DNA of 64,000 nucleotides from a virus (IMGVR_UViG_2834368228_000004:64001-128000); one strand, 5' to 3'; shown: positions 12,190 through 30,984, counted from the stretch's first letter. The notes: generated by a model from the sequence alone, not told the origin. Translations and numbers: made by a program.

Positions 12190-12522
12190 TTAGGGTTCTA
12201 AAATATCTGTCAAAGAAAGTCCAGTATTGTCAATAATCTCTTTATCAAGAGCTTCAAAATACGTGTGTAAACTGCCTTCTAAATTAATATCTAAATAGCA
12301 AGCAGCCATTATTACACTGGTTAAAAGACTAGATAATTCAGGACCTAAATCAGCAGTATTTCTTTTCAAAAGCTTTGTTGATAACTTACCTAAATCAGAT
12401 GTGATTTTCAATATTTGACCAGATGCAAGTTTAAATCTTTTACTATCACTAGTTTCAGATAGCGGTCCATCAAAATGGTCATTCAATGCTATTAACGCTT
12501 GCTGTATATTTTCAATTTGCAT
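12190..12522 (-). CDS. MazG-like all-alpha NTP pyrophosphatase fold, degenerate
   Basis: QILKITSDLGKL...ELSSLL..VIMAACYLDINLE matches MazG-like spacing but most metal-binding E/D residues are lost. Confidence 0.5.
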   Translation of the reverse strand: MQIENIQQALIALNDHFDGPLSETSDSKRFKLASGQILKITSDLGKLSTKLLKRNTADLGPELSSLLTSVIMAACYLDINLEGSLHTYFEALDKEIIDNTGLSLTDILEP

Positions 12523-13755: not shown

Positions 13756-13986
13756 CTAACATAAATGGATATCACCAAGAACTTTTAGTTTATTGTAATC
13801 ACGTTTATTACTTTTTGCTTTTATAATATATATATATATATAATGGCAACTACTATTATAATCTTTATCTTCAACCTTTTTTATGATTTCAGTCTGAATA
13901 CTTTTTGCATTATATTCCAAGTAGTCAATTACTTCGTTATCATCTTCTCCCCAGGTTTTAATCCTAAAGGATTTATTAAATAGCAT
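13756..13986 (-). CDS. Hypothetical protein containing an (AT)n tract
   Basis: 76 aa, AAAGGAG RBS; YIYIYI encoded by AT repeat at 13826-13842. Confidence 0.55.
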   Translation of the reverse strand: MLFNKSFRIKTWGEDDNEVIDYLEYNAKSIQTEIIKKVEDKDYNSSCHYIYIYIIKAKSNKRDYNKLKVLGDIHLC

Positions 13987-14374
13987 GATTTTCTCCTTTT
14001 TTAGAAGACAACACTAAGGGAAGGGGATTACCTGAAGCGTCAGTCTTAGATAAGACTTCAATCATTGCATGTTCATAAAATAAAGTTTTATCTATGTTGT
14101 TATGCTTTGAGATAACATCATATGAATACTGACGGATTTCATCGTCCGAGAGCTCAGTCATATTAGAATGATAGAGAGTATACGTAAGAGTTAACTCGTC
14201 TTCTAAGATAAAGCTAACTTTATATTCTTGTTCAGACAATACTGGAGCGGCCAGTTTAGTTTCTATAGAACGCAATTCATTAGTAAATCCATACATGACG
14301 GCTAACTGCTGAATCTCTTGACTACCAATAAAAGAAGCCAATAATTTATTGTTGATAGATTTATTCATTTTCAT
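13976..14374 (-). CDS. Hypothetical protein
   Basis: 132 aa, AAAAGGAG RBS. Confidence 0.6.
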   Translation of the reverse strand: MKMNKSINNKLLASFIGSQEIQQLAVMYGFTNELRSIETKLAAPVLSEQEYKVSFILEDELTLTYTLYHSNMTELSDDEIRQYSYDVISKHNNIDKTLFYEHAMIEVLSKTDASGNPLPLVLSSKKGENHAI

Positions 14375-18642: not shown

Positions 18643-19871
18643 GCTAATACCTTCTCCTTTGTTATTCTATCTCTTTTATATATTTATATCTTCGTAACTG
18701 CCGATAGGCATCCCAAATTAAGTTCGATTAACTTACTATGTAATACACTACATCATCATAACACACAATACATTAGATTATAGTAAATATCTATACGAAC
18801 ACATACGAACAAATAGTGAACAATTTGTGACAGTTAAAGTATAATGTAGCGAAACCTTAGGAATTCCCCGTCTTAATACTATGTGAGAGGGTTTTACAAC
18901 AAACATCGAAAACTAACAGTGAAAACCTCATACTTACAGTGTAGGCATAATGAAAAAAGATAGCCTCATCAAAAAGATAGCAAACTACTAGAGAAAATGT
19001 AATACTCTTCAAGAATAGTCCTCCAAGTATAGAAAGCTACGACACCATCATCGAGTTAACCGGTACCTCCCAGCCATAGCGTGAGGATGATGTCGTCCGT
19101 GGCCCCCGTATGCCCTTTTGGAAACAGCATAAATCTAAAACCTTCGAGTCAATGTATGTACGTTTGACAAGGGAGTAAGAAAATTGATACCACCAAGCTT
19201 TCATATAGTATTTCCCTCGTGTTCCGCTTCCATATATAACCGCCATACATATAAGTGACATCACCATAAAATACATACTTCTTACCACAATAGCATGACA
19301 GTGCTCATACTTCTTAACACTAATAAAATACGCCAATACTATATAGTATGCTGTCAACATATCACCTATAGATGACACACCTTACATAGTACACTGACAG
19401 TATGGTCGCCTGTAGTAAACTTGGGGAATGTAGGGTGCCGGCAGTGTTGCCGATAATAATAAACCCACCACATGTAGGAGCTACCACACCCACTGGGAGG
19501 TGAATGAGATTGTCTGACGGGAGTTGCAATGTTACCGAAGGTTAAATGTCACGTTGGCATCAGGGAAGCTGAGAGAGCCTTCTATTTAATCCTGAGCGGT
19601 TTAGCGATAAGAAGGATGGTAGCATGCGGTGTGTGTGGGTGTTGAGTAGAACACGTACAATGTGTGAGTGTTCGGATGGTGGCGTACGGATAATGCGAGA
19701 CTGATATATACTTTTGCTCGGTCAAAGTATGCTATGTGTGTGGTGAAAGGCGAACAATGATAGGGAGCGGATGGTGTGGATAGCCTTCTCCGAAGGTAGA
19801 GAGGGAGGGAGAGAGGGTAGTATGTTGAGGGTTATCATATATGAGGATGTAGCATGCACACCCGAAGGGTG

Positions 19872-19899
19872 GGAGAACCCCTATCCGAAGGAGTTCTCC
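19872..19899 (-). terminator. Strong hairpin 3' of RNA polymerase gene (no U-tract)
   Basis: GGAGAACTCC-ttcggata-GGGGTTCTCC on minus strand, followed by a second hairpin CACCC-TTC-GGGTG. Confidence 0.5.
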
Positions 19900-19937
19900 A
19901 TTGTCATACTTGGGTGATTAAGCTATAATTACAGTTA

Positions 19938-22900
19938 TTAAGCGCCTAGCTTGATTAGCTTCCCTACTTCTAGGTTAACAGTGCGAGTACCTTTGCCGAG
20001 GTTACAAGCATCTACTGATAACATGAACTTATCATGACCTAGTAGTGGGGAAATGTTGTTTCTTGAGTTATATGCAAAACCTACTTCAGTCTTATTAATG
20101 AATAGCTTATACTTGTCACCTACACCTTGAATAAAGATGCTTTGAGTAGATAAGCCTTCTAATACTGTGTCTAATGTAAACTTCTCTTGAATGTCATCTG
20201 GAATACATACAGCAACAGTGAAGTTATTATCAATCACTTGATTAGATACAATTTGATCTTGCTTCGGTTTATTCTCCATGTAAGAAAGAGTTTGAATGAA
20301 TGCTTCACGTGTAATCGTCCAAGGGAATGAAAGACCTGCATCTTGTTTACGATCTACATATGTTGCATAGTATGCTGCATATCCGATATCTTTAGCTGGA
20401 TACTGGCTCATTAGTTCTGCTACTCTGTCACGAGCTTGTTCAGCAATCGTACCGATGTGAGTTGAAACCATCTCATCGATTTCATTCATTTTAAGTTCAC
20501 GTTCTCCTTCTTCAAGGTTGCCACTCATAATCTTATTCTTATATTCTTCTGCTCCTCTGTATGTTTGACGAACAGCGCCACCGTAACCTGCTTTGATTTG
20601 TTTTACTTGATTCAATAGCATGTTAAAGTAGTTTGGATCTAAGTTGAATGAACTGTTCATCTTAGTAAGCAATGAGTAGCTGTTAGCATCTTGATACATA
20701 ACTTCTATTTTGTTAGTAAGCTCTTTATCTTCAAAGTCTTGTACCATTTCCATTAGTCTAGATAATACGGATCCTACATCATGTCCGTCTTTACCTTTAC
20801 GGCTTGCCAACCAGTTAGGCTTATTCCATACTCTTCTGCCTAATCCTTTATTGAAGTAAGATAGCTCTTCAGGTGGGTTAACCATGAAGTCTAATGTTTC
20901 TTTCATCACTTCTTGATAAGCACCACCGTGTTTAGCTGCATCAATTTCCCATCCTTGTACAAGGCGAAGAATGTTGATCCAGTTTTCATACTTGTTAATA
21001 CGTTGTAGCATATTATCTTTCTCTTGAGGTGATGCATCTTTAATCATATAGTCATAGCCGATACCACGAACACCATCAGCTAAGATACTAGCGATGTTTG
21101 TTGCTAATCCGATTTTGTTAGGCTTCAACGTTCTGATAACATAGTCGATACCTAGTTTATGAATCTCTTCATAAAGAGCGGTTGTTTTCTGTCTATCTGT
21201 GAAAGTAACACGATAGTTGCTTTGGCTAACAACCATGTCAACTGGTAAGCGATACACACCAGTCATTGGCTTAGAGTATGGAACACCATCTCCAAGAAAT
21301 TCTACTTCTCCATTCACATCTGTGAAAGAGATATCCATTAATGGTGGGAATACTTTACGTTGTAATGCTTCTACAACTGCTGGCTCTGTAACAGTTAATG
21401 CTGTATCACCATCGTTGTCTGCTCCACCCATTGCGAATGTAGCAAAGTCATGAACACTCATAACTAGCAAGTTACGGAATCCACCTTTACGAGAAGCTTG
21501 ATTATACACTTCAATACCACGATTACGTAGTACTTGCCACTCACCTTTAGCAATCATTGGATTACGACCAGCCGCTACATACAAAGGTGATTTATCTTTG
21601 TGTGCAGATGGGATGTAAGCTTCATTTGGTTGAATGTGATAGTCACCACGATTAGTAATCATCAGTTGACCTTCATCATTACGCACTTCATATTTTGTAC
21701 CAGCTTCTAGTACAGCATATGGATCTTGAATCATGTAGCGGTAGTGTCCTTCTACTGGAATGTTACCAGTTTTCCACTCTTGAATCTTTTCTTTCAACAC
21801 ATCTAATGCATAACGTTTCATTTGTACATCATCGTAGGACCATTCGAACATATCCAAGAAAGTAGTAAACGTGGATACACGAGATTGATCTAACAGATAG
21901 TGTTCTACTTCTGCATCAAGTAAATCGGAATCAATGACTTTATCTAATCCGACATACTTCTTCATAAGAGATGGATCATGCAATGCATTACCGATTTCAT
22001 CTAAATGTGGTTTCAATACATTCCACAAGTCATTAACATTGAGTGAAGAAGCTTGAATGAATTGATATGGCATATCAGTGTAAGACTTAACTTTACTCAT
22101 TGGCTTGTTGAACATAGCAATACGTAATTGTGGTACAAAGTTAGGGTTAGATTTGAATAGTAACTCAAAGCTACCTTTTACTGCTGACTTAAGTGCAACT
22201 ACATGTGCATCATAATAGCTGCGTAAGTTAGGAACAAAGATCATTAAGCCTTTTACAAATGGAGTAATACGAATTTGCCATGCATCATTGAACTGGCCAA
22301 ACTCCGCTCCAAGTGTATGATACATTTCTTCATCACAGAATAAAGCTCCATCAGCTGCAGTTAGTGTAATTGGATGCTCACTTGCATCGAATACTCTGAA
22401 CTCTTGACGTTCCTTATCCCAAGCACGGTACGTACCAGTGTTGATTTCAACAAAGCGGTCTTCTACCAATGCAATCGTATGAGTTCCACCAGTTAGATAT
22501 TGATCTCCAGTCTCAATATTAGTGACTACTTCGTTACCAAAGCGGACTGTCTTAGATGCAATACTGTTCGTACCAGCTAGTCCTGGACGAGTCATCATTT
22601 TGTCTACATCGATTACATAGTTGCCATCACGATCTACTTTTGCATAAGCTAAGAAATCATGTCCAAGCACACGATATGCATCGATAGGGGACATTACATT
22701 TGTATCAATGAATACTGCTTGCAATAGTCTTGCTTGTGAAGCTGAGCGTAATAAGAAGAATGCATGACTTTCATCACCATGCTCATTCATGTAATAGAAA
22801 CCTTCTTTCATAACTTTCGTACGAAGCTCTACTAATTCATGATCTTCTTCAGTGTAATCCATTTCATCCTCTGGAAGCTCAATGTACAAGTCTGCAAAGA

Positions 22901-23474
22901 AGATGTGACGCATTGGCAGCATAACACGTTGTTTAATCAATTGACCATCCTTCGTGAATTCAATTACTTCAGAAGCGGATGCAAAGCTTTCACTTAGGAA
23001 TGACTCACTGATCTCTTTGTAAGAATCAACATTCACTTCAGTATAATCAATTGTAGAATATACTTTATCTTCACGTAGCTCCATGCTATTTATCTTAGCA
23101 ATAGGAACAAGAACACCTTTACGTGTTGGTGCATATACACGATTAGCTAGTTTGTGTGAACTAACAAACTCTTTGAAGTAGCGAAACTGATTAGATGGTA
23201 CATCAGCAATAGATGGATCTTTAAGAATATCAAGTAGTACATTACCTTTTGACATAGCATTTAATACACGAGCAAAGTTCTTAGAGTTACGTGACTTGAA
23301 TCCTTCAGCAACAGAAAGAGCTGCTAAGATATCTTGTACAGTAAATAGGTATCCATTTTCTTGTAGTAGTGAGCGATTTTCGATAGTTGTGTTCATAGTT
23401 AAAACATCTCCTTTAGTTTGGTTGTTTAATTTAGTTGATAAAGATTTCGCAGTTTGATTTTTCATAGTAATCAT
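19938..23474 (-). CDS. Single-subunit two-barrel RNA polymerase (YonO / eukaryotic RdRP-like)
   Basis: ADG, WQIRITPFVKG, GRNPMIAKGE, MGGADNDGD catalytic DxDGD motif, KIGLATN, EIDAAKHG; likely starts at 23465 or 23396. Confidence 0.85.
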   Translation of the reverse strand: MITMKNQTAKSLSTKLNNQTKGDVLTMNTTIENRSLLQENGYLFTVQDILAALSVAEGFKSRNSKNFARVLNAMSKGNVLLDILKDPSIADVPSNQFRYFKEFVSSHKLANRVYAPTRKGVLVPIAKINSMELREDKVYSTIDYTEVNVDSYKEISESFLSESFASASEVIEFTKDGQLIKQRVMLPMRHIFFADLYIELPEDEMDYTEEDHELVELRTKVMKEGFYYMNEHGDESHAFFLLRSASQARLLQAVFIDTNVMSPIDAYRVLGHDFLAYAKVDRDGNYVIDVDKMMTRPGLAGTNSIASKTVRFGNEVVTNIETGDQYLTGGTHTIALVEDRFVEINTGTYRAWDKERQEFRVFDASEHPITLTAADGALFCDEEMYHTLGAEFGQFNDAWQIRITPFVKGLMIFVPNLRSYYDAHVVALKSAVKGSFELLFKSNPNFVPQLRIAMFNKPMSKVKSYTDMPYQFIQASSLNVNDLWNVLKPHLDEIGNALHDPSLMKKYVGLDKVIDSDLLDAEVEHYLLDQSRVSTFTTFLDMFEWSYDDVQMKRYALDVLKEKIQEWKTGNIPVEGHYRYMIQDPYAVLEAGTKYEVRNDEGQLMITNRGDYHIQPNEAYIPSAHKDKSPLYVAAGRNPMIAKGEWQVLRNRGIEVYNQASRKGGFRNLLVMSVHDFATFAMGGADNDGDTALTVTEPAVVEALQRKVFPPLMDISFTDVNGEVEFLGDGVPYSKPMTGVYRLPVDMVVSQSNYRVTFTDRQKTTALYEEIHKLGIDYVIRTLKPNKIGLATNIASILADGVRGIGYDYMIKDASPQEKDNMLQRINKYENWINILRLVQGWEIDAAKHGGAYQEVMKETLDFMVNPPEELSYFNKGLGRRVWNKPNWLASRKGKDGHDVGSVLSRLMEMVQDFEDKELTNKIEVMYQDANSYSLLTKMNSSFNLDPNYFNMLLNQVKQIKAGYGGAVRQTYRGAEEYKNKIMSGNLEEGERELKMNEIDEMVSTHIGTIAEQARDRVAELMSQYPAKDIGYAAYYATYVDRKQDAGLSFPWTITREAFIQTLSYMENKPKQDQIVSNQVIDNNFTVAVCIPDDIQEKFTLDTVLEGLSTQSIFIQGVGDKYKLFINKTEVGFAYNSRNNISPLLGHDKFMLSVDACNLGKGTRTVNLEVGKLIKLGA

Positions 23475-23492
23475 TTCTCCTTTTATTAGCTA

Positions 23493-23888
23493 TTAGTTGT
23501 ATAGGCCTAAGATATCGGCTACAATATCTCTTGTGAGATTCTCTTCGATCAGGAAGCAAATCTCTGAACGGTCTACTAAACCGTAGACATCAAAGTGGAA
23601 GACCAACACAGGTCTTGGAAACTTATGGTGAGCGTTGCCATATCGTCTCAAAACATGTATGGTAACGCCCTCCAACATATACTTCTTAACATACTTCACA
23701 TAATTCTTGGAGTCAGACAAGGTGACGTCAACAGGGACATCACCAATGAAACAGTCTGTTCCATAATAAAAATCTTCTTCCTCTGTAGAAGGACGATACT
23801 CTTCATAGAAGAGGTCCTCAAATAGATCCAATACGTATGCTTCTACATATTCACCATGACTCATATTGCTACGATAAGACGTACTCAT
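23493..23888 (-). CDS. Acidic PD-(D/E)xK-like fold protein
   Basis: ATG 23888 after GAGGAG; G..VE...ST.EED..GTD.FI....VDVT. Confidence 0.5.
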   Translation of the reverse strand: MSTSYRSNMSHGEYVEAYVLDLFEDLFYEEYRPSTEEEDFYYGTDCFIGDVPVDVTLSDSKNYVKYVKKYMLEGVTIHVLRRYGNAHHKFPRPVLVFHFDVYGLVDRSEICFLIEENLTRDIVADILGLYN

Positions 23889-24079
23889 TTCTGCTTCTCC
23901 TCTCTTAGAACTGGATAAGTGATTAAGCATTCGATTACATTACTTCTAACCGAATAAACCCCATATCTTGCACGATGTTTCTTGTCATATCCGATAAAGA
24001 TTGAATATAGATAACCAAAGTCATCGTCATAACCTAAATACTCGCCATTTGTTACTAGTCTTCTAAATGAAACTCTCAT
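23885..24079 (-). CDS. Hypothetical protein
   Basis: ATG 24079 after AAAAGGAGTG. Confidence 0.55.
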   Translation of the reverse strand: MRVSFRRLVTNGEYLGYDDDFGYLYSIFIGYDKKHRARYGVYSVRSNVIECLITYPVLREEKQK

Positions 24080-24129
24080 AGTTAACACTCCTTTTGTTTG
24101 TTTTTAAGTTGATTAAAGTAATACATTTC

Positions 24130-24196
24130 AAACAGGCATAAGCCTCTCATAGACAGCGAGCGGTCACTCTAAGAGAACCATCTATGGCATCTGTTT
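24130..24196 (-). ncRNA. Unassigned pseudoknotted structured RNA
   Basis: Outer AAACAG/CTGTTT, P1 ATAGATGG/CTGTCTAT, hairpin GAGT/GCTC, pseudoknot CTCTTA/TGAGAG; GU wobbles only work on minus strand. Confidence 0.5.
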
Positions 24197-24221
24197 AACC
24201 CAATACAGTGGGATGTTCACA

Positions 24222-24303
24222 TGCTTCAACGTGCTGAGTGGTCTAAGACCCATGCCTATCTTCGACCACTACATAGATAGGGTGAGGGGATGTTCCTGAA
24301 GCA
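24222..24303 (-). ncRNA. Unassigned pseudoknotted structured RNA
   Basis: Outer TGCTTCA/TGAAGCA, hairpin CCTATCT/AGATAGG, loop AGTGGTC pairs with downstream GACCACT. Confidence 0.5.
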
Positions 24304-24319
24304 ACGACAACATAGCTAG

Positions 24320-24805
24320 TTAAGCTATCAATGAATAAGCGAATACATCAAACACTTCACTAAGCCCTACAAAGCCTTCATGCATAACTGTTGATATGAA
24401 GTAGATAGGTGCTATAGCAAGCAAGATACCTGTTGATGATAAGAGACCAACACTTAAATGTTTGAATGCTGTTGCAACCATATCTCTACCAGTAGCTAGA
24501 TGCTTGTATCTGTTGTAGTAGGAGATCATCTTTACTCCTGCATAGAATGTTGCACTAACAGGTATAAACAAGGCTCCTTGTGTGACAAGGCCTGCTGCAA
24601 ATGAAGTTGTTGTCACTAGAGCAGCTGATTTCCAATGCTTAGCCGACAGTTCCTTCACGTTCTTGTAAGCTGAGCCTAGCCCTCGCTTTACAGAAGTGAC
24701 AGCTTTAGATGCCTTAAACTTACTCCAACCTTTCTTCACACTCTCTAAAACATCAGCAAATACATTACCTTTCATGTCTTCTTTCGCTTGTACTGTGATA
24801 ATCAT
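24320..24805 (-). CDS. Membrane protein with basic amphipathic N-terminus
   Basis: 161 aa, GAAAGGA RBS, two to three hydrophobic segments. Confidence 0.65.
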   Translation of the reverse strand: MIITVQAKEDMKGNVFADVLESVKKGWSKFKASKAVTSVKRGLGSAYKNVKELSAKHWKSAALVTTTSFAAGLVTQGALFIPVSATFYAGVKMISYYNRYKHLATGRDMVATAFKHLSVGLLSSTGILLAIAPIYFISTVMHEGFVGLSEVFDVFAYSLIA

Positions 24806-24853
24806 GGTAAATCCTTTCTATATGCTCGGTTTTATGTCATGAGCTGGACTAGT

Positions 24854-24922
24854 TTGACTTGTCTTATCAATGCAGGGATAGTCAATCACCTACAGACACC
24901 CCTCCTCTAGGGTGTTTCGACA
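24854..24922 (-). ncRNA. Hammerhead ribozyme, type II, U3-A8 core variant
   Basis: UGUC-GAAA-CACCCU/GGGGUGU-C^ UGUAGG/CCUGCA-UUGAUAA-GACA; loop I UUGACU pairs with 3' tail AGUCAA; predicted cut between 24895 and 24894. Confidence 0.85.
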
Positions 24923-25099
24923 TTAAAGGGATATGATTGTGTATCCTTCAGCATCTACTCCAAGATTTACTTCTGCTTTCTTAACCGCATTAATAATCAA
25001 GTGCTGATTGTATCCTCGTTTCATTAAGTCTCCGAAACGAATAACCTTTCCTTGTCCTTTGATTTGCTTGAATAGAGTTACCAGTGTGTTTGTTTGCAT
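24923..25099 (-). CDS. 58-aa protein, first gene of the leftward transcript
   Basis: AAAAGGA RBS; MQTNTLVTLFKQIKGQGKVIRFGDLMKRGYNQ...; stop codon abuts the hammerhead. Confidence 0.6.
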   Translation of the reverse strand: MQTNTLVTLFKQIKGQGKVIRFGDLMKRGYNQHLIINAVKKAEVNLGVDAEGYTIISL

Positions 25100-25237
25100 T
25101 CTTCATCATCCTTTTCAATTAGTAGTAGGGGGTGGGGGCGACAAACGCCTATTAGAAAACCCTATTAAAAAAGGTGCTACCCTACGCAATTTTTTTATAA
25201 AAAATGTCCCATATAGGGATTTCCCCATGTTTGTGGG

Positions 25238-25283
25238 ATGACAATTGAGAAAGTTTGTTATACACTGTTTGTAATGCATTACA
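25238..25283 (+). promoter_or_regulatory. Sigma-A-type promoter with palindromic operator over +1
   Basis: ATGACA-17 bp-TACACT, then TGTAATGCATTACA at 25270-25283. Confidence 0.6.
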
Positions 25284-25299
25284 TAAAAGGAGGTAAGTT

Positions 25300-25671
25300 A
25301 TGAGTAGATTAAAGCTTGTGGATTTAGAGTCGGAGTCTGTCGAATATAAGGAATTAAAAAATAAAAAAATATATAGGCCAACTGCCATACCTTATGTGTA
25401 CTTTAATTACTGTTGTGAGAATAAAGGTGACTTCACACTATTGAAATATGACCCTATCTTTGGAACTGATGTCATCATTTCGAAGTCATTAGGTTTTATA
25501 AAGATTCCATATAAACTGTTGGAGAAATTAAAAGCCTGGTATAACAGAAAGCTTATGTATATCGCAATTAACCTTCACAACAAGCGAAAGATTGATTTAC
25601 CTGAAGGAGTTAGGTTGAGCTTATTAGATGTATGGAACCTTAGGAAAGAAAAGAAAAAAGGAGTGAAGTAA
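25300..25671 (+). CDS. Hypothetical basic protein
   Basis: 123 aa, AAAGGAGGT RBS. Confidence 0.65.
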   Translation: MSRLKLVDLESESVEYKELKNKKIYRPTAIPYVYFNYCCENKGDFTLLKYDPIFGTDVIISKSLGFIKIPYKLLEKLKAWYNRKLMYIAINLHNKRKIDLPEGVRLSLLDVWNLRKEKKKGVK

Positions 25672-25674
25672 ACG

Positions 25675-26031
25675 ATGAGAATAACAAATGAGGAAATTGC
25701 AAATCTATGTCACAGCATAAACAAAGCATACTGTGAAAGTATTGGTGATTACTCCCAACCTTCGTGGGAAGATGCCCCTGGATGGCAGAAGAAAAGCGCT
25801 ATTGCAGGTGTAGAGTTCCACATGAATAATGAAGTAACTCCAGAGGATTCTCATGAAAGCTGGAGTAAACAGAAAATATTAGATGGATGGAAATTTGGAG
25901 AAGTAAAGGATCCTATTAAAAAAGAGCATCCTTGTTTAGTTCCTTACAGTGAGCTGCCACCAGAACAAAGAGTGAAAGACTACTTGTTTAAAGATGTCGT
26001 AGATACCGTGAAAGCATTAAGGGAAAATTAA
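25675..26031 (+). CDS. RyR-domain phage protein
   Basis: HESW...K..DGWKFG.VKD...KEHPCLVPYSELP.EQR.KD. Confidence 0.8.
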   Translation: MRITNEEIANLCHSINKAYCESIGDYSQPSWEDAPGWQKKSAIAGVEFHMNNEVTPEDSHESWSKQKILDGWKFGEVKDPIKKEHPCLVPYSELPPEQRVKDYLFKDVVDTVKALREN

Positions 26032-28414: not shown

Positions 28415-28486
28415 TGGGATATAGCTCAGCGGTAGAGCAATCGGCTGTTAACCGATAGGTCGTAGGTTCGAAACCTACTATCCCAG
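28415..28486 (+). tRNA. tRNA-Asn(GTT)
   Basis: Acceptor TGGGATA/TATCCCA, anticodon arm ATCGG-CTGTTAA-CCGAT, GTTCGAAAC T-arm; CCA not encoded. Confidence 0.95.
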
Positions 28487-28578: not shown

Positions 28579-28653
28579 TGCGGTGTAGCTCAGTTTGTGT
28601 AGAGCGCTTGGTTTGGGTCCAAGAGGTCGCAGGTTCAAGTCCTGTCACTGCAA
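28579..28653 (+). tRNA. tRNA-Pro(TGG)
   Basis: Acceptor TGCGGTG/CACTGCA, anticodon arm CTTGG-TTTGGGT-CCAAG, GTTCAAGTC T-arm. Confidence 0.93.
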
Positions 28654-28669
28654 TCGATAATATTAAAAG

Positions 28670-29480
28670 AAATATCGGCTTGGCGATGATAGCTATGCGT
28701 GAGTATAGTAAAGGTGGTTTGACAAACTGCCGCTACATATGTAGTCAATCCAAGCACTACGACTTTCCAGGTCTTCATGTAACCAATGGAGATAGCTTTT
28801 GAAATCAAAGGAGAGTTCCTTGCGAGGGCAACGCTGTAGCGAGGTGGCATTAGGTGGCACTGATGCGCTCCACGCCAATTTGATTAAAAAGTGAGAAAGA
28901 ATCGGAAGGCTATCAGTTTGAGGTTTGACAACCAAAGGCGTTAGTCAATGTCTAAAGAGACCTGTCAACTACATATAAGATTGGCACAGTACCTTTAGGG
29001 ATCGTTCGAGTAACTAGTCGGTGAAAGAACAGGGTGGTGTGTGGTATTTTGTTCTCCAAAAGGGAATGAAGCCACTGGAACAGCACATCATCAGTTGAAA
29101 GGATAAATAATAAATTATAGTTTCTTATTTGGGAATAAGAGTCCAATACAACATATTACATTACAGTGAAAGCCTGTTCCACGAAATAACGAAAGCGACT
29201 TAATCCTTCACTCCATGAGAATGAAGGGGCTGATGAGTCTCGCAAGGCTCAAAAGCTTTTGTTCCGATTTGCAAGGTTCTCTTAGCGGAGATTTGTAGCG
29301 TGGCAACGTTGACTGAATTTGAAGAGCAGAGTAGTTATTTCGATGTGTCATATTATGCTAGACACATTAAACTAAAGCAGTCGTGGTCATTACTTGAGCG
29401 CTTATAGGTTCAAGTGGACACGTGAGGAATACATAATCTCACTAAAGATGACTAAGAAAGAGTTTAGTCTCAGCTCTTTC
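28670..29480 (+). ncRNA. GOLLD RNA (~800 nt)
   Basis: Hairpin-dense region with no credible ORF after tRNAs; GOLLD-like GGTGGTGTGTGGTATTTTGTTCTCCAAAAGGGAATGAAGCCACTGGAACAGCACATCA segment and terminal GAAAGAG-TTTAGTCTCAG-CTCTTTC hairpin; boundaries approximate. Confidence 0.8.
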
Positions 29481-29806: not shown

Positions 29807-29826
29807 AATGAAGGGTGGAAGGAAAA

Positions 29827-30984
29827 ATGGCAAACGAAAAGAAGCAGATGCATCTAGTGGCAGTCGATGTAGGTTTTGGGGGATTAAAGTACATGTCAAA
29901 CAGCAAGCCAGAGCCACAGGTTATACCAAGTGGAGTTGTTACTGGTGTACCAGCAAGTAGACCATTACTATCATCAAGTGATATTAATATTAATGAGTTA
30001 GTAGTCCAAACAGAAGAAGGCACATACTTTGTTGGAGAGAATGCGTTAGGTATGCCAGTAGAAGAGAATGTTAGTGTGCGTACAGAAAAGCGTAATCGTG
30101 CTCATGATGTAAAAAGCCGAGTTTTATTCCACACTGGAATTGGTTTAAGCTTACCTGATATAGATGGAAAATATGAAGTTACAATTGTGACTGGTCTTCC
30201 AAACAGTGACTACGACAAAAGCATTCATGATGATTTACGAGCTTTCTTAGAAAAAGATTTTACAGTAGAGTTTTACTTGGATAGAGAAAATAGTATAAAA
30301 AAAGAGGTAAAAGTAGCTAAAGTAATTATCTTGCGTCAGCCAGAGGGAACAGTTACGTATAATCAATTTAGATTTGATCCTGAATCGTTCATTGTGCCGT
30401 CTAACAGTCGTGCTGATTATCTTGGAGTAATTGATTTCGGACATGTTTCTACTGACTATGCGCTATTTAGAAATGGAGTAGTAATAGAAGACCCAACCAA
30501 AAACAAGTCAACTATCGGTGTAACAGAAGTGTATAAACGTCTTCGTCAAGCTGTAGAATTGAAGTTCAGTGACATGGGCTATATGTTCCACCCTTCAGAT
30601 CAAGATCTTGATTATGCGATTCAAACAAACCATATCCGTTATCGCAATCAAGACTTTGATATATCAGATGAAATTGAAATGGTTGTTAGGGATCGTGCAA
30701 GACCTATTACTGATTCAATTACTACTGCCTGGGGCAATGAAGCGAACCGTCTTCAATTGATTATTGCGACTGGTGGAGGAGCTCATGTTTATGCTCAAGA
30801 AGTAAGAAGGAATTTTGAGTCAGAGAATATCCAAGGATTCATTATTATGGAAAATTCTAGGTTCACAAATCTCTTAGGATTCTACATGTATGGAGCATTG
30901 GAGCTATCAGATACTTATGGTACTGAAAAAGTAATGGAGCTATATGTGAATCCGGTTAAGGAGTTGCATGAGCATGTCGCATAG
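29827..30984 (+). CDS. parM: ParM/StbA-family actin-like partition ATPase
   Basis: VDVGFGGLK, VTGLP, QPEG, IDFGHVSTD, ATGGGA actin-fold motifs. Confidence 0.88.
   Translation: MANEKKQMHLVAVDVGFGGLKYMSNSKPEPQVIPSGVVTGVPASRPLLSSSDININELVVQTEEGTYFVGENALGMPVEENVSVRTEKRNRAHDVKSRVLFHTGIGLSLPDIDGKYEVTIVTGLPNSDYDKSIHDDLRAFLEKDFTVEFYLDRENSIKKEVKVAKVIILRQPEGTVTYNQFRFDPESFIVPSNSRADYLGVIDFGHVSTDYALFRNGVVIEDPTKNKSTIGVTEVYKRLRQAVELKFSDMGYMFHPSDQDLDYAIQTNHIRYRNQDFDISDEIEMVVRDRARPITDSITTAWGNEANRLQLIIATGGGAHVYAQEVRRNFESENIQGFIIMENSRFTNLLGFYMYGALELSDTYGTEKVMELYVNPVKELHEHVA

Follow-up and report, generated by a model that had tools for sequence, protein, structure and literature searches.

YonO has been shown experimentally to be the DNA-dependent RNA polymerase of the late genes of phage SPbeta, its promoter being unknown (PMC5467207), and gp99, put forward in 2007 as the RNA polymerase of Bacillus phage 0305phi8-36 (PMC2147016), was later placed as YonO-like (PMC7824862). 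The genome of 0305phi8-36 is reportedly terminally repetitious without being permuted (PMC3357382). In the haloviruses HF1 and HF2, the mapped 5' end of an early mRNA falls at the cleavage site of a hammerhead ribozyme termed HHphage (PMC3088659). Here we analyze a locus in which a polymerase gene of the YonO/gp99 type and a hammerhead ribozyme stand in one compact cassette, located in a stretch of viral DNA of 64,000 nucleotides (nt; IMGVR_UViG_2834368228_000004:64001-128000). This whole stretch is referred to below as the window, all coordinates are positions within it unless another locus is named, and the cassette, which lies on the minus strand, runs from 25218 to about 19455. Single-chain polymerases of the YonO type are thought to resemble the ancestor of the cellular RNA polymerases, and the family to which this locus belongs provides a compact conserved context, consisting of a unique junction, a fixed ribozyme, and unnamed RNAs, in which the control of such a polymerase could become testable.

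We read the cassette, with a probability of roughly 0.6, as the opening operon of the non-structural, leftward arm in a jumbo phage or phage-plasmid of 0305phi8-36 type. Its polymerase and its ribozyme both belong to known families; what is new is their fixed arrangement, together with a junction element kept from uncultured phages to 0305phi8-36 and a set of conserved RNA stems that match no Rfam family.

Genomic Setting and Conserved Gene Order

Minus-strand genes fill positions 1-25100 and plus-strand genes begin at 25300, the sign of the GC skew flipping at the same place. The plus arm codes for the terminase, the portal, and the major head protein; for its portal and terminase, identity is 34-44% with the counterparts in Bacillus phage 0305phi8-36, in phages WH1, Edson, and KLEB27-3, and in Moorella phage MTATph1 (about 35% for 0305phi8-36 alone), and homologues of gp112-114 of 0305phi8-36 stand ahead of the terminase gene. 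On these grounds, and on that of the polymerase comparison given below, 0305phi8-36 is the right relative, as had been named in an earlier interpretation of the window, hereafter the sequence-only reading. The observations of that reading are correct for the most part, and the majority of the parts it lists are conserved. The same phage is present in many public assemblies at about 198 kb, and a relative 69% identical to it is a 191-kb "provirus" of IMG/VR.

The family set comprises about 15 loci with full-length polymerase homologues of 28-70% identity, taken from IMG/VR, JGI, Logan, and ENA (designated L002, L003, and so on where they have to be told apart). The related phage contigs, of about 100-230 kb, share the order junction, membrane protein, polymerase (about 15), and in nearly all loci the usual succession is the strand switch, a membrane protein of 160-260 amino acids (aa), 0.1-0.8 kb of noncoding DNA, a few small genes or none, and the polymerase. 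The self-standing cassette that had been proposed is thus a real unit whose order is kept in relatives, and of the features that were expected to recur there, the junction element (13 loci), the polymerase order (about 15 loci), and the hammerhead (4 loci, counting the window) do so, whereas a GGGGG run at 19103, which had been proposed as the far boundary, is not conserved. Queried by megablast, a set of 50,697 phage records contained no match to the cassette.

The RNA Polymerase

The gene at 23474-19938 encodes a protein of 1178 aa that Pfam, alignment, and hhalign assign to the single-chain two-barrel RNA polymerases, which bears out the single-subunit polymerase of the sequence-only reading. 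The Pfam family RdRP (PF05183) matches with 32.1 bits, above its cut-off of 23.8 (E 6.9e-8), and the two-barrel metal-binding loop of DxDGD type, GADNDGD at residues 684-690 (21428-21405), contains five positions, G684, D686, D688, G689, and D690, that are invariant in an alignment of 20 homologues. Comparison by hhalign gives a probability of 99.8% with 0305phi8-36 gp99 (E 1.1e-29, 782 columns) and 98.2% with the YonO homologue of Spbetavirus BUCT082 (E 5.5e-14), the latter being also the sole polymerase match of tblastn among phage isolates. An exhaustive search of a protein library returned 102 representative homologues, about 40 of them at E < 1e-30 and mostly of 1000-1400 aa; searches for a PDB sequence match and for a PHROG family gave none. 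On sequence grounds the protein is a polymerase of the YonO/gp99 type, known in kind.

The Hammerhead Ribozyme and the Optional First Gene

The first open reading frame (ORF) of the cassette, at 25099-24923, is the 58-aa gene that had been predicted there, and it is an optional member of the operon: the protein is 64% identical in L002, L010 and L017 have weaker homologues ahead of their polymerase genes, and L003, L004, and L086 do without the gene, the membrane-protein gene taking first place there. PHROGs hold no family for it. Between this ORF and that of the 161-aa membrane protein lies a gap of 117 nt, in which a type II hammerhead (24922-24854) starts right after the 58-aa stop codon. 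Its stem II pairs UGUC (24922-24919) with GACA (24863-24860); GAAA follows at 24918-24915, then stem III (24915-24896), the predicted cleavage site 3' of C 24895, stem I (24894-24871), and the core UUGAUAA (24870-24864), a U3-A8 variant, while a pseudoknot joins UUGACU in loop I (24885-24880) to AGUCAA in the 3' tail (24859-24854).

The Rfam model Hammerhead_II (RF02276) matches 24922-24853 with 24.4 bits against a gathering score of 37, and the homologues in L002 and L009 score 29.3 and 26.1 bits. That the hammerhead is genuine, as the sequence-only reading had held, follows from homologous copies, a descriptor scan, and covariation. In L009, whose polymerase is only 38% identical, it occupies the same place directly upstream of the membrane-protein gene, and L018 carries a canonical copy, again at the same place. 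A descriptor (GAAA, stem III, H nucleotide, stem I, YUGANRA, closing stem II) run over both strands of 293 kb of family loci found exactly four sites (the window, L002, L009, and L018), all at the same position, compared with 0.15 in shuffled sets. RNAalifold recovered all three stems from the four copies, with stem II open-ended and compensatory changes in 8 of the 14 pairs. The cleavage triplet NUH reads GUA in L002 and GUC in the other three copies. The loop I-3' tail pairing is present in L002 as UGACC with GGUCA, one compensatory U-A to C-G change, and is lacking in L009 and L018, where the loops are short. The core UUGAUAA of the window stands against CUGAUGA in the other three copies; because C3 and G8 pair in the ribozyme, U3-A8 retains the core pair, and this covariation has been seen in natural hammerheads, such variants being active in vitro (PMC3088659). 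It is very likely, as far as can be judged from these comparisons, that the transcript cuts itself at this site.

The distribution of the module among the relatives suggests what the ribozyme may do. L003, L004, and L086 have neither the 58-aa gene nor the hammerhead, and in L086 the C-run of the junction is followed directly by GUCCAGCUCAUGAC-GUUAAACCGAGCAU and a ribosome-binding site, the same sequence that in the window stands after the hammerhead at 24850-24811; it thus seems that the 58-aa gene and the ribozyme were inserted together as a single module. The engineered self-cleaving ribozyme RiboJ serves as an insulator that gives a downstream gene a fixed 5' end whatever stands upstream, and the hammerhead here may be a natural insulator of the conserved leader from the inserted upstream gene. 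This would suggest a concrete function for phage hammerheads, the roles of which are mostly obscure, and as far as we have found, its fixed place before one conserved gene of a polymerase operon has not been described in the literature.

Outside this position, L010 contains a type III hammerhead candidate on the plus strand (12204-12260; 38 bits against a gathering score of 48.5, E 1.3e-4), 1.7 kb downstream of the polymerase gene, so more than one hammerhead seems to be in use among these phages. The scanned stretches of 0305phi8-36 (L071 and L072) yielded no hammerhead.

The Junction Element and the End of the Virion DNA

The cassette begins with an arm-junction element of about 90 nt (25218-25128), defined from an alignment of 13 loci with invariant blocks. 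Read along the minus strand, it consists of the block CCCTATATGGG (25218-25208), an A-tract with TTGCGT (25196-25184), the block AGGGTAGCACC (25183-25173), a variable spacer, a hairpin GGCG-TTTGT-CGCC, and the C-run CCCCCACCCCC (25138-25128). A search of all loci for the C-run gave the composite shared by the 13, namely CCTATA(TA)GGG, an A-tract with TTGCG, GGGGTA(C/G), about 35 variable nt, and CGTTCGGnGCCCCACCCCC, the last of which sits 30-70 nt upstream of the first start codon. The plus-strand form of the C-run, GGGGGTGGGGG at 25128-25138, had been singled out by the sequence-only reading; it is present as described, 28 nt ahead of the ATG at 25099, and occurs once in the window. The element as a whole is likewise found once in the window and once per genome in the four relatives of about 100-230 kb that match the exact pattern.

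The comparison with 0305phi8-36, whose ends we took from the GenBank annotation and PMC3357382, gives this element its particular interest. The annotated repeat end (6479 = 218948 in GenBank) comes directly behind GGGGAGTACCA, at a point that separates the two halves of the homologous junction element and is 39 nt from GCCCCACCCC. Since the boundary splits the element, the C-run half lies 39 nt from the right end of the virion DNA and the A-tract half lies outside the repeat. GCCCCNCCCC has only two occurrences in the 219 kb of 0305phi8-36, each copy of the terminal repeat containing one. The alignment places the corresponding point of the window at about 25172, and, because the G-run belongs to an element that holds an annotated repeat end, a right boundary here is plausible; we somewhat favor the view that the virion DNA of the present phage ends within the junction element, near 25172. 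The element is a candidate promoter, terminase site, or both, and, more broadly, a candidate terminus or packaging signal for the jumbo lineage of 0305phi8-36 type.

Its possible role in transcription was considered separately. A simple promoter scan of the minus strand at 25100-25300 returned zero sigma-70-type matches, which agrees with the earlier statement that no sigma-A promoter precedes the first start. A sigma-A promoter within the junction, with TTGCGT as the -35 box, was rejected for want of a conserved -10 box at 16-18 nt, and a sigma-54 promoter because the required GG at -24 is absent. A sigma-B-like promoter with GGGTA as the -10 box, or a T7-like promoter (CTATAGGG), may be present, being neither supported nor excluded by the alignment. 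Stems of 10-16 bp and of unrelated sequence flank the C-run in 6 of the 13 loci, and their G-U pairs, which fit the sense strand only, suggest an RNA leader. As a separate observation, clusters of CCCCTATATA and CCCTCTATAGG units, similar to the junction box CCTATAGGG, occur in L003 (7600-7850), L011 (6680-6740), and L014 (5175-5225), and may represent a phage-specific promoter or binding motif.

The sequence-only reading went further and took the whole cassette, from about 25.1 to 19.1 kb, for a direct terminal repeat that is injected and expressed first and processed by its ribozyme, with RNA structures shielding the new ends. This model is unlikely in our estimation, although it accounts for several observations: its right boundary is homologous to the annotated repeat end of 0305phi8-36; 6479 bp counted from 25172 end at about 18690, inside a gene-free tract of 1.3 kb; and the left boundary in 0305phi8-36 also lies in a long noncoding tract, 5-20 nt from a C/T-rich run like that at 19817-19798. 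Moreover, the contigs of four independent relatives, L008, L009, L014 (= L079), and L076, stop 0.6-1.2 kb past the polymerase gene, which may reflect either difficulty in assembling the gene-free tract or a physical end there. Against it, the polymerase gene of 0305phi8-36 is outside the repeat, gp99 lying at 208026-211682 and the repeat starting at 212470, 788 nt away, and the seven genes of that repeat (gp107-gp101) have no homologue in the window; C/T tracts of the kind seen at 19817-19798 are unspecific, being found elsewhere in related loci too; the contig ends share no common sequence; and the assemblies of relatives are proviruses or circles. Offered as the boundary mark, the minus-strand GGGGG (19103-19107) is one of 14 such runs in the window, where composition predicts about 22, and has no alignable sequence in relatives. 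Uninformative in this respect are the "direct terminal repeat" of the relative G003, which proved to be a 61-nt assembly overlap, and the L002 record, of provirus class and with a single copy of the cassette; the assemblies, too, show one copy. Of the terminal-repeat proposal, then, the right boundary stands by homology, and no left boundary was found; a terminal repeat spanning the polymerase cassette is less likely than not.

Slightly less probable still is that the cassette is an operon of the ordinary kind in the interior of a replicon that is circular or plasmid-like, the junction being a divergent promoter or operator and its overlap with the 0305phi8-36 repeat end incidental. The junction does stand between divergent genes and contains palindromes typical of operators (CCTATAGG and GGTACC), two relatives (L002 and L015) are of provirus class, and one complete relative has a circular assembly. 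An actin-like partition protein is encoded nearby, at 29815-30984 on the plus strand, where a PHROG "partition protein" matches and a near-identical counterpart elsewhere carries the Pfam domains ALP_N and MreB-like_C; with the two provirus-class relatives, it hints at a plasmid-like carrier state. What tells against an incidental overlap is that the element has been kept over a large evolutionary distance along with a terminase of 0305phi8-36 type, and that its C-run half constitutes the last 40-50 nt of 0305phi8-36 virion DNA, which is hard to credit to chance. The isolates WH1 and KLEB27-3, which give no polymerase match in tblastn, lack the junction element as well; having no annotated repeats, they are uninformative about the terminal repeat itself.

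The Region Downstream of the Polymerase Gene

About 1.3 kb between 19937 and 18642, the start of the next gene, is free of genes, and no gene is called there in two public assemblies of the same phage. The first part, 19937-19455, is probably a 3' untranslated region: two UUCG-loop hairpins at about 19899-19857 are followed by further CCTTCGG units, by a C-rich, G-poor stretch of some 400 nt (19900-19480; 30-39% C and 10-16% G) that includes the longest C-rich pyrimidine tract of the window (19817-19798), and by a terminator-like hairpin with a T-run (19478-19455). The hairpins and the skewed noncoding DNA listed in the sequence-only reading are thus both there. CCTTCGG hairpins also follow the polymerase gene in L003, L008, L009, L014, and L076, and the C-rich, G-poor composition, not the sequence, recurs at this place in L002, L003, L004, and L076. 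We take the hairpins for a structured part and the stretch behind them for an unstructured one. Because Rho loading sites are known to be C-rich and G-poor, the stretch may, by analogy, be one. The remaining noncoding DNA (19454-18643), which holds the GGGGG run, aligns with L002 or L076 at 18895-18804 and nowhere else. On the plus strand, a sigma-A promoter close to consensus (TTGTCA, 17 nt, TATAAT; 11/12) lies at 19901-19929; it is directed into the polymerase gene from the 3' side, antisense to it, and is not clearly conserved in L002 or L076.

There is a poor chance that the 1.3-kb tract is a replication origin, a packaging site, or the gene of a large noncoding RNA instead of a 3' untranslated region, since its length, lack of genes, strand skew, conserved composition, and opposite-strand promoter are set against a search of 18650-19937 without any Rfam match at E up to 10, the poor folding of G-poor RNA, and the absence of sequence conservation beyond the CCTTCGG hairpins.

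The Membrane-Protein Gene, Its Leader, and the Gap RNA

Downstream of the hammerhead lies a conserved leader (24850-24811), GUCCAGCUC-AUGACAUAAAACC-GAGCAU, in which a hairpin of GCUC (24844-24841) with GAGC (24827-24824) is followed by the ribosome-binding site GAAAGGA. The leader is near-identical in L002 and L086, and L004, L011, L015, and L019 have hairpins at the same place with different stem sequences. A "mini-pseudoknot" had been suggested at these positions; what the relatives retain is a hairpin before the ribosome-binding site, with no sign of a pseudoknot. The ORF that follows (24805-24320) encodes the 161-aa membrane protein, rightly listed as one in the sequence-only reading, and holds first or second place in the cassette. 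It is conserved: nearly all loci have, ahead of the polymerase gene, a gene for 160-260 aa in which about 1-4 membrane segments are predicted, mostly 3-4. No Pfam or PHROG family was found for it, and an Atlas search returned no informative neighbor.

The 231-nt noncoding gap after this gene (24319-24089) contains conserved RNA stems. Stem S1, CCUAUCU/AGAUAGG (24281-24275 with 24261-24255), is kept in L086 and forms a pseudoknot with S2, GUGGUC/GACCAC (24269-24264 with 24243-24238), which in L086 reads GUAGUC/GACUAC, a compensatory G-C to A-U change; S1/S2 in L086 also have one wobble change. Stem S3 (24224-24218 with 24193-24187) is kept in the window, L086, and L002. Element A has an outer stem (24175-24170 with 24149-24144) enclosing the hairpin GAGU-GACC-GCUC (24169-24158); its core GAGUNNNNGCUCG is found in four distinct loci, with outer stems CUCUUA/UGAGAG in the window, CUGUA/UACAG in L002, CAAU/AUUG in L086, and UUCAU/GUGAA in L003. 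The comparison rests on three or four sequences, too few for statistics. Of the two pseudoknot RNAs previously proposed, one (S1/S2) has comparative support, in the form of a single compensatory pair, whereas the second is unsupported. Two other pairings, the energy-minimum long-range stem CUAUCUAUG/CAUAGAUGG and a closing stem AAACAG/CUGUUU, were rejected, as neither is kept in relatives, and the fold of the single sequence was no better than that of shuffles (z = -0.6). Rfam 15 gave no match on the transcribed strand of the gap at E up to 10, the lone row being a plus-strand Fibro-purF at chance level (15.7 bits, cut-off 60, E 9), and none at E up to 1 in the equivalent gaps of L002, L003, L004, L009, L010, L015, and L018. 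From the kept stems, we consider it likely that the gap holds a structured RNA outside any described family.

Relatives show a different element right after the membrane-protein gene, a hairpin with the 7-nt loop GAUGACG (variants GAUAACG and GAUGAAG), located in L003 (2345-2395), L004 (4325-4370), L010 (6635-6665), L015 (6610-6640), L012 (5885-5915), L014 (4835-4865), L017 (4975-5005), L011 (6465-6500), and L019 (6420-6455). Its stems covary (AGAGAU/AUCUCU, GCAU/AUGC, CGU/ACG, CUGU/ACAG, and CAC/GUG), and it is often flanked by CUGA ... GAUGA in the manner of a k-turn or box C/D. The scanned copies in L003, L004, L010, and L015 had no Rfam match, and the hairpin is absent from the window and L002.

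Small Genes and Neighboring Features

Two small genes stand between the gap and the polymerase gene. The first (24088-23885) encodes 67 aa from GTG 24088, or 64 aa from ATG 24079, the start chosen by gene callers and the gene length given in the sequence-only reading; its product matches phrog_33695 (E 1.2e-6) and has homologues in L002 and L014. The second is an ORF of 145 aa (23930-23493), probably a 131-aa protein from ATG 23888, which is also the length in public gene calls (P0103), with homologues next to the polymerase gene in L002, L003, L012, L014, and L086. In some distant loci, the 58-, 67-, and 145-aa proteins have homologues encoded ahead of the polymerase gene. The label "nuclease-like" that the second gene had received has weak evidence behind it: Pfam RE_MjaI scores 17.8 bits (E 0.003), under the cut-off of 22.7; structural matches of the predicted model (pLDDT 90) are weak, with a best Z of 4.4, many of them being PD-(D/E)xK nucleases, including VRR_NUC, Vsr, Bax1, and Hjc; and a Foldseek search of the PDB with this model found nothing at E <= 0.001. 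PHROGs have no family for the 145-aa protein. Eight homologues of the 131-aa protein share invariant E16, D39, D45, D54, K61, and K65, and the modeled protein may have a restriction-endonuclease-like, nuclease-like fold.

On the plus arm, the second gene (25675-26031) encodes a 118-aa RyR-domain protein (Pfam E 5e-14; phrog_5154), which stands beside the junction in L002 and L004 too. A full-length GOLLD RNA (29032-29476, plus strand; 205.9 bits, E 1e-56) adjoins tRNA genes at 28415-28486 and 28579-28653; GOLLD was not matched at the syntenic place in L002, where there is a weak GcvB-like row only.

Proposed Course of Expression

Taken as the first operon of the leftward arm, the cassette would be expressed as follows. 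Transcription would start inside the junction element, as suggested by its position, by the G-U pairs that fit only the sense strand, and by the absence of another promoter, and the leader would carry a hairpin and the invariant GCCCCACCCCC. The hammerhead after the 58-aa stop codon would cut behind C 24895 and leave a 5'-OH about 45 nt before the leader hairpin, so that the membrane-protein mRNA would begin near the point where it begins in relatives without the extra gene. Next on the transcript would come the membrane protein, the structured noncoding RNA, two small proteins, and the single-chain two-barrel polymerase, which, by analogy with YonO, would transcribe later phage genes. The transcript would end with the UUCG hairpins, the C-rich, G-poor stretch resembling a Rho site, and the terminator-like hairpin near 19460. 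If the virion DNA has an end at about 25172, the cassette would form the last 5.5 kb or so of one genome end; that its DNA is repeated at the other end is conceivable, and we lean against it.

Several points weigh against this account. Start site, cleavage, timing, and termination are each a matter of inference. The junction has no recognizable sigma-A -10 box at a fixed spacing, and of the 13 loci only 6 have long stems beside the C-run that do better than shuffles, the rest being no better than shuffled sequence. Every hammerhead copy detected misses the gathering threshold of 37 bits, and the C-rich tract could have another purpose. A terminase identity of about 35% to 0305phi8-36 is no guarantee of the same packaging mode, and the physical ends of the relatives' genomes cannot be read off the records, because IMG/VR labels those of L002 and L015 proviruses and that of L013, a complete relative, is a circular assembly with an overlap of 61 nt.

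A bolder combination, which we regard as improbable, would make the junction the physical end, the cassette a first-entering repeat, and the hammerhead and unnamed RNAs a new RNA control circuit for the dose or timing of the polymerase. Were it true, the circuit would comprise the hammerhead and gap RNA here and the GAUGACG k-turn-like hairpin in relatives, and one of the unnamed RNAs might be a new ribozyme class or a polymerase-binding RNA.

Comparison with Described Systems

The closest counterpart is 0305phi8-36, with which the locus shares the arm carrying the terminase, portal, and gp112-114 genes, the junction element with GCCCCACCCC before the first leftward gene, and a polymerase gene within a few kb of the junction. 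The two differ in that gp107-gp101 of 0305phi8-36, seven unrelated genes spanning 6.5 kb, lie between junction and polymerase and constitute the repeat, in that the first leftward gene there, gp107, has no membrane segment, and in the polymerase itself, which is only distantly similar to gp99 (tblastn E 3e-5). Some six copies of GTATCGCACACGTTATGTC ahead of gp100 and gp99 (L072, minus strand, 14070-14240 and 13790-13830) probably represent the 21-bp phage-specific promoter motif of PMC2147016; no equivalent repeat was noticed by eye in the window, which received no dedicated repeat search. Compared by description only, SPO1 is alike in carrying early genes in a long terminal repeat and unlike in that its module has many sigma-A promoters and no phage polymerase.

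With YonO, the polymerase shares the single-chain two-barrel organization, the DxDGD loop, and the Pfam RdRP superfamily. It is longer, at 1178 aa against 924 aa in the BUCT082 homologue, with which about 450 columns align, and the type of phage and the gene context are different. The HHphage hammerhead of HF1/HF2 likewise lies just upstream of an early gene; the host there is archaeal, the hammerhead variant and the downstream gene are others, and the mapped 5' end concerns HF1/HF2 only.

Type II hammerheads of prophages (RF02276), reportedly described by Perreault et al. in 2011, differ from the window's copy in that the latter scores below the Rfam threshold. The two are alike in having three stems with an open stem II, GAAA and the CUGANGA core, the GUC site, a pseudoknot between loop I and the 3' tail, and an intergenic place in a polycistronic unit of a phage.

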